NCBI GenBank assembly: GCA_963720135.1
Contig: CAVREJ010000028.1
Coordinates: 38,680-102,679, forward strand
From: an uncultured Acidobacteriaceae bacterium
Lineage (GTDB): Bacteria > Acidobacteriota > Terriglobia > Terriglobales > Acidobacteriaceae
DNA: 64,000 nt
Direction of reading: 5' to 3'
Part shown: positions 47,235 to 64,000 of the stretch, piece after piece
How the letters are laid out: every line of letters starts with the position of its first letter
Position numbering within the stretch: the first letter of the stretch is position 1
The notes under the pieces: generated by a model
What the model saw: the letters and a program-made list of their open reading frames with translations, nothing else
Told to the model about the DNA's origin: nothing
Databases searched by the model: none
Made by a program: the position numbers and the translations under genes

Positions 47235-48404
47235 TCAGTGCCGCTCCGGGCCAGGTCTGGCCGGCTGGTTGTGCGGTTGTGGCGCCGGCCGCGCCAACTG
47301 CTGTTGCTCCTGCTGGTGACGCTGCTCCATTTGCATCGTCTGTTGCTGGTGCTGCCGCTCCATCTGCTGCATCTGCTCGTTGGTAGCAGGTTGCTGCGCC
47401 ATCCGCTGATGCTCCTGCTCCTGTTGCTGCGCTAGCTGCTCATGCTCCCGTTGTTCTTGGGCCCTGAGCTGCTCCTGCTGCTGCTGGTATTGCTTGTCTG
47501 CTTGAGAGTTCCCCGTATTCCGAGGCGTCGGCGCGGGAGGAGCAGGGACGTCGCGGGCATGAACCGGGGTCTGGGACCGAGACGGGTTGTTCGGCGGACG
47601 CGGCACGGACGCGGCCGTCTCATTGGGACGTGGGGCCTCGCCGGCACTCCCTTTTGCGGGAGGATGGTATGGCGCTCCTGCCGCGCTGGCACGTTCGACG
47701 CCGTGGCCGCTGAATGCCCCGGGTTTGGCGGTAGCCGCGATCGGTGGTCTGCCCTGATTTGCCTTAGCGCGCAGCTGCGGATTGTTGCGGGCGGCTTCCA
47801 CTTGCTGCTCTTGCGCCGCGACCGGAGCCACATGCCGCTCGCGAGCAGCCGCTTCTTCCGCTGCTGTGGGACTCGCTTCGACACCTCCAGGACCGCGGTT
47901 GTAGCTGACGCGGTTCACGGTGACGTTGTTGACCGTCACGTTATAGACATTGCGAATATTCGTGACATTGATGTTGTTCACCGCGCGGTTGTAGAAAAAC
48001 ACTCCATTGTTCCAGCGTCCGCCTTCGTAACCGTGGCCGAAGTAGCCGAATCCATAAACGATTCCGCCGTAGAAGCCGACCGTCGGTCCCCAGTAGCCGG
48101 CATGGAAAATGTAGGCGCCGCCTTGCCAACCCCACCACGGCGGAGTCCAGAGCAGCCCGACGGCAGGAGCTAGTACCCATGTCCCGGGAACCCAGTAATA
48201 ATCACCGAAGTTAGGATCGTAGGCCCAATAGCCGGGAACCCAGAGATAACCTGGCGCGGGACAAACCGACTGTACATACACGGGCAAAGCCGGCGGACCG
48301 AACGACACCGATATGGCGACCTGGGCGAACGATGCCCCCGAAAGCGAGAGCACGATTACTATAAGGGCGAACAAGATCAGGTGACTGCCTGGGAATTTTT
48401 GCAC
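47235..48404 (-). CDS. Secreted YXWGXW-repeat protein with Gln/Glu-rich C-terminal tail
   Basis: Signal peptide (LSLSGASFAQV). Aromatic/Gly repeats: GYLWVPGYWAY, YYWVPGTWV, WWGWQGG, GYWGP. N/V-rich segment, Pro-rich linker, then the low-complexity QQQEQLRAQEQREHEQLAQQQEQEHQ tail. Confidence 0.65.
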   Translation of the reverse strand: MQKFPGSHLILFALIVIVLSLSGASFAQVAISVSFGPPALPVYVQSVCPAPGYLWVPGYWAYDPNFGDYYWVPGTWVLAPAVGLLWTPPWWGWQGGAYIFHAGYWGPTVGFYGGIVYGFGYFGHGYEGGRWNNGVFFYNRAVNNINVTNIRNVYNVTVNNVTVNRVSYNRGPGGVEASPTAAEEAAARERHVAPVAAQEQQVEAARNNPQLRAKANQGRPPIAATAKPGAFSGHGVERASAAGAPYHPPAKGSAGEAPRPNETAASVPRPPNNPSRSQTPVHARDVPAPPAPTPRNTGNSQADKQYQQQQEQLRAQEQREHEQLAQQQEQEHQRMAQQPATNEQMQQMERQHQQQTMQMEQRHQQEQQQLARPAPQPHNQPARPGPERH

Positions 48405-48727
48405 GAGGCTCCTCCTGTAACTCAGCGACCAGAGATGTTGATTTTATCCGGAATTTCCTTTTTGGCGTCGAAAAGCAATGTGCTTTCAAGGAAGTCGGGC
48501 GCTCGCGCTAGTGTTCGCGCAGGCAGCACATTTCAGCGAAGCAGATCGACAAGGAGTTCCGTCGTGCAGCCTGCGCCAGCATCCGTCGCGGTTTGGCCCC
48601 ACTCTGCCCCGTGAATTGGCCCAATGTCGTCGCGTCAATCGTGCCGATGGCGGCTGCGCTCATCAGAACTATTCCGACCGCAGTCATCGGATGTTCATAA
48701 GGGTTATTGTCGCTCCTGTCGTTCTCG

Positions 48728-48904
48728 CTACTGCAGCTTCTCGTACTCGGCTTTGGCTTGCTGGTAGATGGGGATGTCGGGATCGGCGTCTTTCCAGAGG
48801 GTGAGGAAGTTCTGATACGCAGTGCGGGCTTTGTCGCGGGCGTGGGGGTCGGTCTGAGCTTCGAGCGTATAAGCACGGGCGACTCCCAGCCGCGCCAGCG
48901 CACG
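48728..48904 (-). pseudogene. C-terminal remnant of a TPR-containing protein (about 58 codons, no start)
   Basis: The frame reads [58 protein letters not shown], bounded upstream by an in-frame TAG (48905-48907). I recall this tail motif from TPR/Ser-Thr kinase proteins of Acidobacteriota. Confidence 0.45.
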
Positions 48905-49374
48905 CTATGGCAATCACTCGCCGAGGGGTACTCGTTTCGGGGAGCGCAATCGCGGCTCTCTCCACGCTTTATGGCCCTCACGGGACGGACGACTATCGCC
49001 AGCATTGATCGCACTGTGATCTGGTCGTAGTCGGTTCGTGGATGGTCGGCTACACGGAAGCAATCCACTTTGACGGTTTGTCGCCATCTCGGACAAGTGG
49101 AGCGGCAAACTCCCGAGAAACCGGCTTATGGGACATGTGCCGCACACGAACTCTTGGGTCCCAGTGATGTACCAGAAGAAGACTTGTGGGCAATTGTCGG
49201 GCTCTGCACGCGCGCTTGAGAGCCCTTTTCGGCGTAGGCGAGCAGGAGCACTTACGTTCGCGGTCTCTGCACTGTTTGGCAGTGACGCCCAGTGTCACCT
49301 AATTCCAAAGTGGCGGTGTTCCCCTACACCCCGGTTTTATCTACGCGAACCCACCAGTAAAATAATCTACGCCG

Positions 49375-60878: not shown

Positions 60879-61415
60879 TTAGTGCCGTTCACAGGCATCA
60901 TCTGCCGAAGGCCCATAGATGCTCGGGACTTTGCCGCCCATCGGTCGAATGTACGTGCTCAATTGCCCGCGGTGGTGAACGGTATCGAACAATGCAATCC
61001 ACAACAGCCCACCCACCGTGTCTTTGAGCAGGATCTCTTCTGCGCCTTGAATCAACCATGCTTGGTGGTTCCAGCCGTTGTCGTCCAAGGAACGCAACTG
61101 AATTGCAAGGACGTCATGATCGCGCTCGTAATCGGAGATCATCTGCTCCTGATTGCCGAAACTCGCGGGGTCCTGCCAGCGCAAACCGCTGTAAAAACTT
61201 TTCCGACTTTTGCAAAGTTGAATACAACTCTGCTGGGCCGAAACCAGGAGAGCGACCAGTTCTTCCGCCGAGCGAGAGCGGGGATGGGGCCGGTAATCGA
61301 GACGATTAGTCGGCAGTGCTTTGAACACCCGCATGAAGGCGGAGTACTCTTGCTCCCATCTCTGAATGAAGAACTCTCGGTTGCTTAACTCTCTCCCAAG
61401 CAGTTGTGTTGCCAT
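60879..61415 (-). CDS. DinB-superfamily protein
   Basis: Four-helix DinB-like pattern with the C-terminal DTVHHRGQLSTYIR motif. I chose the start at ATG 61415 (MATQLLG). Confidence 0.65.
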   Translation of the reverse strand: MATQLLGRELSNREFFIQRWEQEYSAFMRVFKALPTNRLDYRPHPRSRSAEELVALLVSAQQSCIQLCKSRKSFYSGLRWQDPASFGNQEQMISDYERDHDVLAIQLRSLDDNGWNHQAWLIQGAEEILLKDTVGGLLWIALFDTVHHRGQLSTYIRPMGGKVPSIYGPSADDACERH

Positions 61416-61837
61416 AAAAGGACCTTTCTGTGTGCGCCAAATTCTGATCTCCAATGGCTGCAGCATTCGCCACGGAAACCATGGCGTCATTAGATGTCAT
61501 CGCGCAATTATGGTCGCTACGGCTTCGAATTCATCGAAAACATGTTTGCACTTCACAGGTTGCCCTGCCGAATCAGGTGCGCCTGAATCTCCGTGATCCG
61601 CGCCTCGGCGGTACGCAGGGCTGTGGCGCTTGTATGCGCGGAGTGGGAGCCGAGCCAACGGCGAACTCTGCATCGCATTGGCCCTTGAATTCGATCGCGC
61701 CGCTCGACGGCCTGAAGGCCACCACTTCTCCCTGCCGCACGTCGTCCGGGACCAGGATGGAATCCATCCCTACGGCGGTCCACAGCACGGTGTGTCCAGC
61801 TGGCAGACCATCTCGCAACGCCGGGCTGACAACATGA

Positions 61838-62031
61838 GGTTGCTGGCCAAGGATCTGGCGGCAACCGGACGTCTTCGGTCAGCCCTTTCCGACTCGAAGG
61901 CGGCAGACATTATTTGGAGTATGAACTCGCCGGAGTTCTATCTGTTGCTGGTCGAGCAGCGTGGCGGGTCCCTGGAGGAGTACGAGAGATGGCCGGGAGA
62001 CGCATGGATTCAGTTGCAACTGGAGCCGTGA
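61838..62031 (+). pseudogene. Possible TetR-family regulator C-terminal remnant
   Basis: MRLLAKDLAATGRLRSALSDSKAADIIWSMNSPEFYLLLVEQRGGSLEEYERWPGDAWIQLQL resembles the C-terminal ligand-domain tail of some TetR regulators. No N-terminal HTH is found upstream in any frame. Confidence 0.3.
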
Positions 62032-62547
62032 GCAAACCCGCAGGTGGCTCGCTGATTCTGGACGGGGGACAGCAATCCGGAGACAATCCAGTTTGACGAG
62101 AAGTCGGCTAGGCGCGGAAATGAAATGTGGTCGCGAGTTCGCCGCATCACATCCGCGCATGGGGCGTTTCTCGTCGTGCGCCGGGATAGTGCAGTGAAGC
62201 TAGTTGATGGTCTAACGGGTGAAAGTCCCGCCAGTGCAAATTGCCCAGTTGGCACTGTAGTGATATTCGGCGACGGCACGGGTGACCAAACCGTCGGAAG
62301 CCCGGATGTAAACGTCCTCGTCGGCCGGATGCAGATCTGGTCAGCTCCGACAGGAGGGCAAGCAAAGTACCAGGTCGTAGCGTAAGCGAACCGTAGTTAA
62401 GCCTCGAAAACGCACACCTCACCAGAATCGGAGTGTGAGGATGACGGGAACGCCGAAACTTTTATCCCAAGTTGAAGGCTAGCGTTTTTGGCGAAGTACT
62501 GGGTGCAGGCAGCCGAAAAGTTCCCCGTGGTCTCAGAGGACGACATG

Positions 62548-62988
62548 GTGCGAAAGATCATCAAGGAAAGCTCAGAACCAGTCGTGGGTCGCCTAGCCAC
62601 ATGCGAATGTGGACAGCGAAGGCATCTGGTATAAGCCGCGAGTCGGTGAAATCTGGGATGTGCCCGCGAGTGGGGCGGATGGGGCCGATTAAGTAACGAT
62701 GGACCGGGACAACATAACCCGGACCGGAGCGAGGGCCCCTGGGGTAGAGCGGCTGGTCTGCTCGCACGGAGGTGCCCATAAGCGCATCATCCCTGACACA
62801 GAGCAGGGGACCATGATGTCAGCAAATGAGCACGAAGGACGATGGCAAACCAGGTGGCTGGGAAGGCCTCGCCTGATATTCCGACCTTGAAGCCGTATCG
62901 GGGAAAACCCGCCGTACGGAATTTTAGGGGAGGCAATGGAAACGTCGGCATCATTCGAAGCCCGGTCCGCGCCATTGCCTTACCCGAC
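62548..62988 (+). ncRNA. Group II intron-like RNA, ORF-less or degenerate (5' boundary uncertain)
   Basis: - GTGCG at 62548.
- Several GNRA-capped hairpins, e.g. CCACAT-GCGA-ATGTGG.
- Domain V-like AAGCCGTAT-CGGG-GAAAA-CCCG-CC-GTACGG (62890-62919), with the AGC triad and a 2-nt 3' bulge.
- Domain VI-like helix GGCAATGG/CCATTGCC with bulged A 62982, 7 nt before ...GAC at 62988. Confidence 0.4.
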
Positions 62989-63397
62989 AACCGGCATGTT
63001 GTAGGGGATGCAAGAGCCCCACAGGAAAGGAGAAAGCGACTCCATCCTGACCTCTAGTCTTGCGTGATGCATCGCGAGGTGTGTTGCGAAGCGTAGACCG
63101 AGGCATCGGTGGGCGGGGTAATTGAGCTTCGAAAAACGCCAGATCAGGATGTCGACTCCCTGACGAGTAGGAGGAAGGCAACACGTGTATTCTCCCTGCG
63201 ACGCTAGGTCGCTCTGCTGATTTTGAACTGTTTGGTACGATAATAGACACGACGGCCGTGGTCAAGAGAATTTTTGAACTAGTCATTTCAAAATACCGTA
63301 GGACCCGTGGACGATAATGTAACTCTGCAATCGACTGCTGATTCGGGTCACCGGGATCAGTTCAGCCGCGATCGGGCTCTCCTCCAGGACACCGCTC

Positions 63398-64000
63398 TTA
63401 AGTTGCTGCGGAAGAGAAATCGACGCCAGAGACCTTGACGACGGCCTCCCACGCGGCTTCTTGGCTGGCGCGATCGTGAAGGTGTGGGTGGCGCTGCGCC
63501 TCAATTGGGCCTGAGAACTTCCCTTGAGCCGAGGCGAAGAATTGCCCTGAGACGTCGGTTCCGAACTCCGAGGCCTGGAGGTACCGACGGGCCGCGGTCT
63601 CCGGCGTCTGATTCATGCCGGGAATGAGGTTCACGATTGGGATAAACAGATACTTCAACACCGGGCCAGCGTTTCGCACCACCTTGGTGTCGGTCGCCCC
63701 ACCGGGCGATACGGCGTACACGGCCATGCCGGAGGGCAGCCGGCGGGCCAGCGCCGCGGTCCACCAAGCGATAATGAGCTTCGCGTCAGCATACGCATTG
63801 TTGGGCACGTACTTCACGTTCGGCCCGTTGCGCAGCAGGGCTTCAACAGCCGCGGTTTGGTCGCCCCGGTAGTATTTGGCCGCGAAGGCTGGCACGTCGG
63901 TGTACTTGAACATGGGTACCCCCCCGCGGGCAGGTTCTGCGCCGGAGATAACGATCCGCACGTTGGGGCTCAGCAGGTTGGCGCGGAGCAACCCGACAGT
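63398..64000 (-). CDS. SDR-family oxidoreductase (retinol-dehydrogenase-like), 5' end beyond the window
   Basis: The frame is open to the window edge. It contains the YADAK (Y-x3-K) catalytic motif and the VSPGGATDT (P-G) block of classical SDRs. The N-terminal Rossmann part is outside the window. Confidence 0.6.
   Translation of the reverse strand, partial: TVGLLRANLLSPNVRIVISGAEPARGGVPMFKYTDVPAFAAKYYRGDQTAAVEALLRNGPNVKYVPNNAYADAKLIIAWWTAALARRLPSGMAVYAVSPGGATDTKVVRNAGPVLKYLFIPIVNLIPGMNQTPETAARRYLQASEFGTDVSGQFFASAQGKFSGPIEAQRHPHLHDRASQEAAWEAVVKVSGVDFSSAAT

Follow-up and report, generated by a model that had tools for sequence, protein, structure and literature searches.

Organisation of the locus

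The DNA analysed here, referred to as the window, is a stretch of 64,000 nucleotides from the genome of an uncultured Acidobacteriaceae bacterium (G000:C28:38680-102679), and positions given without a contig label are counted from its first letter. The segment 62176-63184 carries two nested group II introns on the plus strand, an inner one without an open reading frame (ORF), called intron A, and the remains of an outer one, called intron B. The three parts of this arrangement, with the intron-binding sites (IBS) that lie in the first of them, are as follows.

62176-62188, plus strand: first 13 nucleotides of intron B (GUGCGCCGGGAUA), forming the 5' exon of intron A, with IBS2 (GUGCG) at 62176-62180 and IBS1 (GGGAUA) at 62183-62188
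62189-62988, plus strand: inner ORF-less group II intron A, 800 nt, defined by the homology limits in 28 distinct full-length relatives, a match to RF02003 and a consensus fold
62989-63184, plus strand: continuation of intron B, domain I only and truncated at its 3' side, matching RF02005 and 82-88% identical to B-type introns

The segment 62189-62988 is very probably a complete and structurally intact, non-autonomous group II intron that occupies its cognate homing site in intron B. The evidence for this comes from its boundaries, an insertion free of duplication, a covarying fold, matches and covariation between exon-binding sites (EBS) and flanks, a bulged branch A and covariation between the two ends. 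The first-pass annotation, made from the letters of this region, had described a compact intron, possibly class C-sized (about 440 nt) and running from GUGCG at 62548 to 62988, that was ORF-less or decayed and lay in non-coding debris. A group II intron without an ORF for a reverse transcriptase (RT) or maturase has indeed been borne out.

Two Rfam models of domain I match on the plus strand at Rfam gathering thresholds: RF02003 (group-II-D1D4-4) at 62213-62385 with 74.6 bits and RF02005 (group-II-D1D4-6) at 63013-63213 with 103.7 bits. A weak second RF02005 match lies at 62222-62540 (44.7 bits). Since RF02003 and RF02005 span the same part of domain I, the two matches belong to two introns arranged head to tail.

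Boundaries and precise insertion of intron A

A DNA search of 60 relatives with 62150-63260 as the query revealed a sharp break of homology at 62989. One group of relatives matches from about 62186 to 62989, namely a copy in G030 at 90% identity and three copies in G033 at about 75%. In another group (G026, G030, G027, G010, G031, G007 and G008) the match begins at 62989; there the break is preceded by ..G(U/A)GCGCCGGGAUA, to which AACCGGCAUG is joined directly. Four intact relatives of intron B (L011, L012, L016 and L017) are continuous at this point, reading GCGCCGGGAUA|AACCGGCAUG, and GUGCGCCGGGAUA|AACCGG without a break. The window has GUGCGCCGGGAUA at 62176-62188 and resumes with AACCGGCAUG only at 62989. 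As these B-type relatives are uninterrupted at the junction, 62189-62988 was inserted into an RF02005-type intron at its 5' end. Joining GUGCGCCGGGAUA to AACCGGCAUG restores the continuous sequence of the four intact relatives, so that intron A was inserted precisely after base 13 of intron B, with no target duplication. The identical junction of A in B is found in L041, L069, L136, L139 and, in genome G035, L010.

The composite recurs with 82-86% identity over 62176-63135 in several metagenome-assembled genomes (MAGs) of Acidobacteriaceae, as would be expected if 62176-63184 were one unusual intron or structured RNA with no nesting at all. This explanation is scarcely tenable. It is already contradicted by B-type introns that lack A and are continuous across the junction, and by A-type elements that occur without B at unrelated sites matching their own EBS loops; the two separate domain I matches, to RF02003 and to RF02005, speak against it as well.

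Comparison by BLAST with the loci that carry a similar domain V gave 30 full-length relatives of 789-830 nt, in which homology starts at 62186-62191 and stops at 62986-62991. Their flanks differ, and both ends of intron A are thereby fixed. The 3' end at 62988, as first proposed, is thus backed both by the homology breaks in the relatives and by intact host introns in which nothing interrupts the site. The 5' end has to be moved. The GUGCG at 62548-62552 is present as described; it lies in the 3' strand of the helices that close domain I, and the true 5' end is at 62189, which makes the intron 800 nt long. A compact intron of about 440 nt would account for the GUGCG at 62548 with domains V and VI downstream of it, yet it is next to impossible. 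Position 62548 falls within covarying domain I helices, EBS1, EBS2, EBS3 and the RF02003 match all lie upstream of it, and every full-length relative reaches 62189 with none starting at the equivalent of 62548, so that the family alignment has already refuted it.

The termini of intron A are GUGCAG at the 5' end and UUACCCGAC at the 3' end, the latter closing with ..CCCGAC and thus having A62987 as its penultimate base. Group II introns are known for an interaction between their first and penultimate nucleotides. In the A family these two positions covary, being G..A in 25 copies and U or C..G in 5, and the covariation probably reflects this known interaction.

Conserved fold of intron A

The consensus fold was computed with RNAalifold from alignment A2, which holds 28 distinct full-length copies with a mean column identity of 78%. 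It comprises 208 pairs, 96 of them with compensatory double changes. The domains of the window copy, whose labels are our own assignment, are given below.

62195-62574, plus strand: domain I, helices 1-17 of the consensus, most with double changes; its closing helices include the GUGCG at 62548
62575-62676, plus strand: domain II, within helices 18-27
62677-62680, plus strand: J2/3 (GGAU), in the region of helices 18-27
62681-62739, plus strand: domain III, within helices 18-27
62747-62763, plus strand: hairpin after domain III, within helices 18-27
62767-62883, plus strand: domain IV stub of 117 nt without an ORF, helices 28-33
62885-62929, plus strand: domain V, helix 34, core 62889-62925, with the AGC triad at 62891-62893, a GAAAA loop, a CC bulge at 62912-62913 and an extra AA at 62920-62921
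62927-62985, plus strand: domain VI, helix 35, with four double-change pairs and a long insert, followed by a 3' tail to 62988
62982, plus strand: predicted branch A, bulged and invariant, 7 nt from the 3' end at 62988

The alignment supports the paired cells of this structure in 97.5% of cases, as against 89.9% in shuffles, and the 96 double-change pairs compare with 54.6 +/- 3.4 in shuffled alignments, none of 500 reaching 96. When the 3' partners were slid by 1-3 columns, at most 30 double-change pairs were left. Despite the kinship of the copies, the fold is secured by the slid control and by the variety of pair types. Intron A therefore has a six-domain group II structure backed by covariation. 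The three hairpins listed in the first-pass annotation all exist and correspond to consensus helices 20, 25 and 30, each with compensatory changes. Folding of the single sequence gives a z of only -2.1 to -2.2, and the weight of the evidence for intron A comes from comparative data.

The tip of domain IV (62850-62861) is the place where relatives hold 0-30 extra nucleotides (variable columns 709-736 of A2). In the window copy 5 of the 208 pairs are broken, the family range being 1-11, and it departs from columns conserved at 90% or more at 8 positions, for a family range of 1-18. With both values inside the range of the family, the suggested decay is not obvious, and judged by its sequence intron A looks structurally intact, about as much so as the other members of its family.

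Recognition of the flanking exons

Three pairings between intron A and its present flanks have been identified, in answer to the first-pass suggestion that such pairs be sought.

62463-62468, plus strand: EBS1 (UAUCCC), in the hairpin loop 62457-62473 (columns 297-302), pairing with GGGAUA at 62183-62188
62411-62415, plus strand: EBS2 (CGCAC), pairing with GUGCG at 62176-62180
62533, plus strand: EBS3 (U), pairing with the first base of the 3' exon, A62989 (IBS3)

For EBS1, 95% of the cells pair with the last six bases of the 5' flank among 21 copies with different flanks, the maximum in shuffles being 0.58. EBS3 forms Watson-Crick pairs in 90% of distinct sites, with U-A, A-U, G-C and C-G all represented. 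The partner of EBS2 lies at exon bases around -11 to -16. Its mean longest complementary run between exon and loop is 5.96, against 4.16 +/- 0.19 when exons are shuffled (0 of 1000 as high); the signal is seen only at offsets 10-12 and by this shift-tolerant test, there being none at fixed offsets 6-8 from the splice site. The complete set typical of IIB introns (EBS1-IBS1, EBS2-IBS2 and EBS3-IBS3) holds in the window copy.

From these pairings the whole target is the first 14 nt of intron B, GUGCG-CC-GGGAUA|A, in which the partner of EBS2 is the 5' pentanucleotide of intron B itself. The immediate flanks of intron A are consequently not debris; they are the two halves of the 5' end of intron B and form a cognate homing site. 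Class C introns are small and have no EBS2; with its 800 nt, its AGC triad, its EBS1 (6-8 bp), EBS2 and EBS3 pairings and no second copy in the genome, intron A is neither of class C size nor class C-like. Sub-lineages of the family with other EBS loops are found at other sites, about 47 nt into B-type introns (L071, L101 and L140), inside a copy of A (L037) or at hairpin-like sites.

An unusual domain V

The first-pass annotation had placed domain V correctly, together with its AGC triad and CC bulge, and had also seen the odd AA opposite the triad. The sequence of the core is GAAGCCGUAUCGGGGAAAACCCGCCGUACGGAAUUUU. Spacing is canonical for the triad, the middle helix of 6 bp and the CC bulge; the AA bulge and the GAAAA loop depart from a canonical domain V. 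The AA at 62920-62921, which is followed directly by UUUU, separates the partner of the triad C from the U's that are able to pair with the G and the A. The domain V region is nearly identical in 121 pattern matches from many phyla, and for this reason the AA bulge is a trait of the lineage and not a sign of decay. The GUGCA 5' end is a lineage trait too.

Domain VI and its bulged A at 62982 were likewise placed correctly. The A stands 7 nt from the 3' splice site, within the 7-8 nt of group II introns, and the stem covaries.

Of the Rfam checks proposed for this element, one failed and one succeeded: RF00029, the model of domains V-VI, finds nothing even at E <= 10 on the 141 nt of 62860-63000 or in 61000-64000, where only chance matches to unrelated families appear, whereas the domain I model RF02003 scores well above its cut-off of 49 bits. 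A large genome survey finds domains V-VI by means of RF00029 (PMC8919778), and as this model gives no match on intron A, surveys based on domain V would miss its lineage.

The remains of intron B and the surrounding sequence

Intron B survives as 209 nt (62176-62188 and 62989-63184). Its homology to B-type introns stops at 63185/63186, and G029 and G036, both of which have no intron there, share the sequence that starts at 63182/63185. The end of the RF02005 alignment (about 28 nt, 63185-63213) was considered as part of intron B and rejected as spurious, the stretch being common to these intron-free relatives. With its end at 63184, B has no domains II-VI and no RF00029 match downstream, so that the outer member of this nest is not a complete intron able to splice.

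The intergenic sequence 63185-63397 is about 86-87% identical to that of G029 and G036, and the three genomes are wholly different upstream of GTGTATTCTCC. Position 63185 thus borders a region that is variable or has been rearranged; the equivalent point in G029 is the start of a short-chain dehydrogenase gene. At this locus the element is absent from G036, a close relative whose neighbouring gene is 98% identical. Upstream of intron B, 61454-62175 contains overlapping short frames without a Pfam match, and no credible gene has been found in 61.4-62.2 kb. The part of the supposed debris at 62176-62547 is intron RNA, consisting of the 5' end of B and domain I of A.

In genome G031, L016:1488-2400 contains two complete RF02005 domain I matches on the same strand, 624 nt apart, which suggests nested or tandem B-type elements.

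Absence of a protein gene and the reverse transcriptases of the genome

Autonomous mobile introns carry an RT/maturase ORF in domain IV. Domain IV of intron A has 117 nt and the contig encodes no RT, in agreement with the initial observation that none lies in or near the element. No Pfam domain was found in those local ORFs that were tested, and no ORF remnant was identified in intron A, though no dedicated search for one was made. In the whole genome, RT matches (tblastn and PF00078) occur only on contigs C18, C22 and C11, and GIIM has no match in this inventory.

The C18 locus (G000:C18:~48040-49340, L002) is a 5'-truncated B-type intron with an open frame of 484 codons and a full RVT_1 domain; the first ~35 residues of the frame are unrelated to RT, and the intron has a canonical domain V-VI (RF00029, 48.9 bits). 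Its product is the sole candidate for a B-type helper RT in the assembly. Contig C22 holds a 3' RT fragment (C22:157956-158390), and contig C11 an RVT_1 match of 62.8 bits in an open frame of 527 codons (G000:C11:209830-210267, minus strand), which may code for a retron RT, a defence RT or an RT of another kind. A sub-threshold RF00029 match (37 bits, cut-off 40) at G000:C7:142765-142874 (L003), just downstream of a glycosyl hydrolase family 15 gene, could be an intron remnant or a chance match.

The search of this genome for a full-length relative of A that carries an intron-encoded protein (IEP), as proposed in the first-pass annotation, found none. Nor does any element with the AA-type domain V have an RT between domains I and V in the loci checked; RT genes near A-type elements lie downstream, upstream or on the other strand, in the host introns. 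Wherever a domain III or domain I motif was found, its distance to domain V fits a short domain IV, a test that covers about half of the 121 domain V matches, the rest being sub-families with other motifs. Two sets of candidate IEPs were examined and rejected. The 834-codon frame abutting domain V in L117 belongs to an outer RT-encoding RF02003-type intron in which an A-like element is nested, and in 10 loci the long ORFs that precede domain V proved to be host genes or frames free of stops by chance.

Points against an intact intron, and the possibility of a fossil

Several points weigh against the reading of 62189-62988 as an intact non-autonomous intron. Its splicing, branching and mobility are all properties that we infer from the sequence and its relatives. 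RF00029 has no match in the window at its gathering threshold, and the AA bulge adjoining the catalytic triad could in principle impair canonical catalysis. The 5' end does not follow the GUGYG rule: it is GUGCA(G) in the window copy and in 23 of the 30 copies, the other seven start with UUGCA, CUGCA or GCGCA, and position 5 is A in every one. The copies share ancestry, so that the shuffle statistics overstate their independence. Because the basal pairs do not vary in domains V and VI, covariation is unable to assign GGG 62927-62929 to one or the other. Finally, neither a helper IEP nor an intact IEP-encoding intron was found in an assembly that is 97.8% complete, although at this completeness a helper could be absent from it.

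Some of these observations, with others, could be taken to mean that the element is an inert fossil, a formerly mobile ORF-less intron whose RNA no longer splices or moves and which decays neutrally in pseudogene debris. Intron A is present as a single copy in the genome, its host is cut to 209 nt, no intact IEP-encoding intron was found, the sequence from 61.4 to 62.2 kb has no credible gene, and the 90% identical copy in G030 is truncated at its 5' side. We consider such a fossil unlikely, though it is the most serious of the alternatives. The broken pairs and the departures at conserved positions are within the range of the family, the EBS/IBS pairings with the present flanks are all intact, and the triad, both bulges, the branch A and the G1..A ends have all been kept; moreover, a loss of mobility does not imply a loss of splicing.

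Under the preferred reading of an intact intron in its homing site, the following course of events may be proposed. Domain I of the transcribed RNA would pair with the B-derived 5' exon and with A62989, after which A62982 would attack the junction 62188|62189, the lariat would leave and the 5' end of intron B would be re-joined. The lariat could then reverse-splice into the same 14-nt site of other B-type introns and so give rise to new copies, provided that an RT acting in trans copies the reverse-spliced RNA into DNA; B-type or related RT-encoding introns would be its most plausible source. With intron B reduced to a 209-nt stump, A in a single copy and the only B-type RT in a 5'-truncated intron, the window copy is probably stranded as far as mobility is concerned.

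Distribution of the family and nested relatives

The domain V pattern used in the searches specifies 20 bases. It occurs once in the 4.9-Mb genome of the window and at more than 119 loci in a collection with one genome per species, where about one match is expected by chance according to our estimate. The phyla represented include Acidobacteriota, Planctomycetota, 'Deltaproteobacteria', Binatia, Nitrospirota, NC10, Verrucomicrobiota, Bacillota and others. Within the genus the pattern is found in 6 of 89 genomes (~7%), and in an even sample of the phylum in 2 of 401, the genome of the window being counted (<1%). The A family is taxonomically broad but sparse. Such patchy presence is consistent with a mobile element. 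Some MAGs hold several copies, and neither BLAST nor the domain V patterns gave a further copy of intron A in its own genome.

A-type elements have themselves been found to serve as homing targets, as is evident from other introns inserted in their domain V. In L010:1-940 (G035:C1105), L048, L057 and L089 another group II intron is inserted directly after ..ACGGAA of domain V. The inserted introns of L048, L057 and L089 begin with GUGCGUCCAGC and have an RT just downstream; that of L010 matches RF02003 with 119.8 bits and retains only a remnant of the maturase domain, together with a canonical domain V. At L037:3395-4270 one A-type element interrupts another, in the linker between domains V and VI (3' flank AAUUUUAGGGGAGG..).

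Nesting of an A-like ORF-less element within a B-type intron is also seen in a cultured strain, Edaphobacter modestus DSM 18101 (L055, NZ_SHKW01000007.1:48001-56000). The host intron there has only the C-terminal part of an RT and a canonical domain V-VI (RF00029, 43.6 bits).

The window copy may represent a lineage that spans phyla, is apparently undescribed and seemingly wholly ORF-less, has an invariant AA bulge and a GUGCA end, and homes largely into conserved parts of other introns as a parasite of a parasite. We put this broader proposal forward tentatively, with somewhat less than even confidence. The part of the literature that was searched has no description of the AA-bulge lineage, which is weak evidence of its novelty.

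Since no member with an IEP has been seen, and since domain V and the long insert of domain VI are extremely conserved across phyla, it may also be asked whether the lineage is chiefly a protein-free ribozyme, either a HYER-like hydrolytic nuclease or a self-integrating RNA, with the altered domain V as an adaptation to the lack of a maturase. HYERs, which are ORF-less IIC introns, and P.li.LSU.I2 act on DNA without protein (PMC11754743). This appears improbable for the A family. Precise copies at sites that match the EBS are the signature of reverse splicing and cDNA synthesis, and an RT is therefore needed. The conserved branch A and the covariation of the ends point to selection for lariat splicing, and the frequent residence in RT-encoding introns suggests dependence on their IEPs. 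In addition, HYERs are multi-copy and of the IIC type, whereas intron A occurs once in its genome and its family does not resemble IIC introns.

Comparison with known systems

The closest parallel to the arrangement of intron A is found in Thermosynechococcus elongatus, where ORF-less TeI3 introns home into TeI4 introns, are mobilised by driver IEPs and form TeI3-in-TeI4 twintrons (Mohr, Ghanem and Lambowitz 2010, PMC2882425). Like intron A, TeI3 is an ORF-less bacterial intron whose EBS match the IBS of its flanks well and whose homing site is a conserved part of a second group II intron, one that encodes an RT. Mobilisation in trans by driver IEPs was demonstrated experimentally for TeI3 and would apply to intron A by analogy. 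The differences are considerable. TeI3 introns arose recently from TeI4 by deletion of the ORF, of which remnants are still visible; they have a canonical domain V and are confined to one genome, whereas the lineage of A has an extra AA bulge in domain V and spans many phyla. They insert in domain IV, where the first and the second ATG of the IEP ORF flank their target; the target of A is the first 14 nt of the outer intron.

In Methanosarcina acetivorans, introns that encode an RT and introns without an ORF have both homed, time and again, into group II introns related to them (Dai and Zimmerly 2003, as summarised in PMC4424553 and PMC2882425). As in the A family, the resulting arrays lie in non-coding surroundings; the counterparts here are A in B, A in A (L037) and other introns in A (L010, L048, L057 and L089). 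Compared through the same two reviews, the nested introns of M. acetivorans differ in being archaeal and in homing into intron ORFs.

HYERs are reportedly propagated as multiple copies in a genome. According to PMC11754743, which describes the work of Liu et al. 2024, they are ORF-less IIC introns that function as hydrolytic nucleases and recognise only about 7 bp. They share with intron A the state of a bacterial group II intron RNA without an IEP; A differs from them in its 800 nt, its combination of EBS1, EBS2 and EBS3, its AGC triad, its branch A and its single copy in this genome.

RT-encoding introns in related loci obtain higher RF02003 scores than the 74.6 bits of intron A, namely 94.3 bits in L143 and, for the intron with the RT remnant, 119.8 bits in L010. 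The latter has a canonical domain V, whereas domains V-VI of the A lineage are missed by RF00029. It had been concluded that ORF-less introns are rare in bacteria and that introns with an unusual domain V may have been overlooked (Zimmerly and Semper 2015, PMC4424553).

Significance

About 1 kb of gene-less sequence in the window (62176-63184) is explained by the current analysis as two nested retroelement RNAs. Intron A belongs to an unusual lineage of group II introns; what had first been observed in the sequence was largely right, and the interpretation given to it partly right. The sparseness of the family leaves the general picture of the abundance of such introns as it was. Intron A nevertheless provides a clean example of an intron that targets the universal 5' end (GUGCG...) of another intron.

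As far as can be judged from its sequences, the A lineage combines the hallmarks of lariat splicing and guided homing with an AA placed beside the metal-binding AGC triad, and does so with no protein gene of its own. Under the broader proposal made above, the altered active-site helix may indicate a changed or more protein-independent catalytic core. With its combination of traits the lineage represents a natural experiment on the variation that is tolerated in the active-site helix of group II introns and of spliceosome-like systems.

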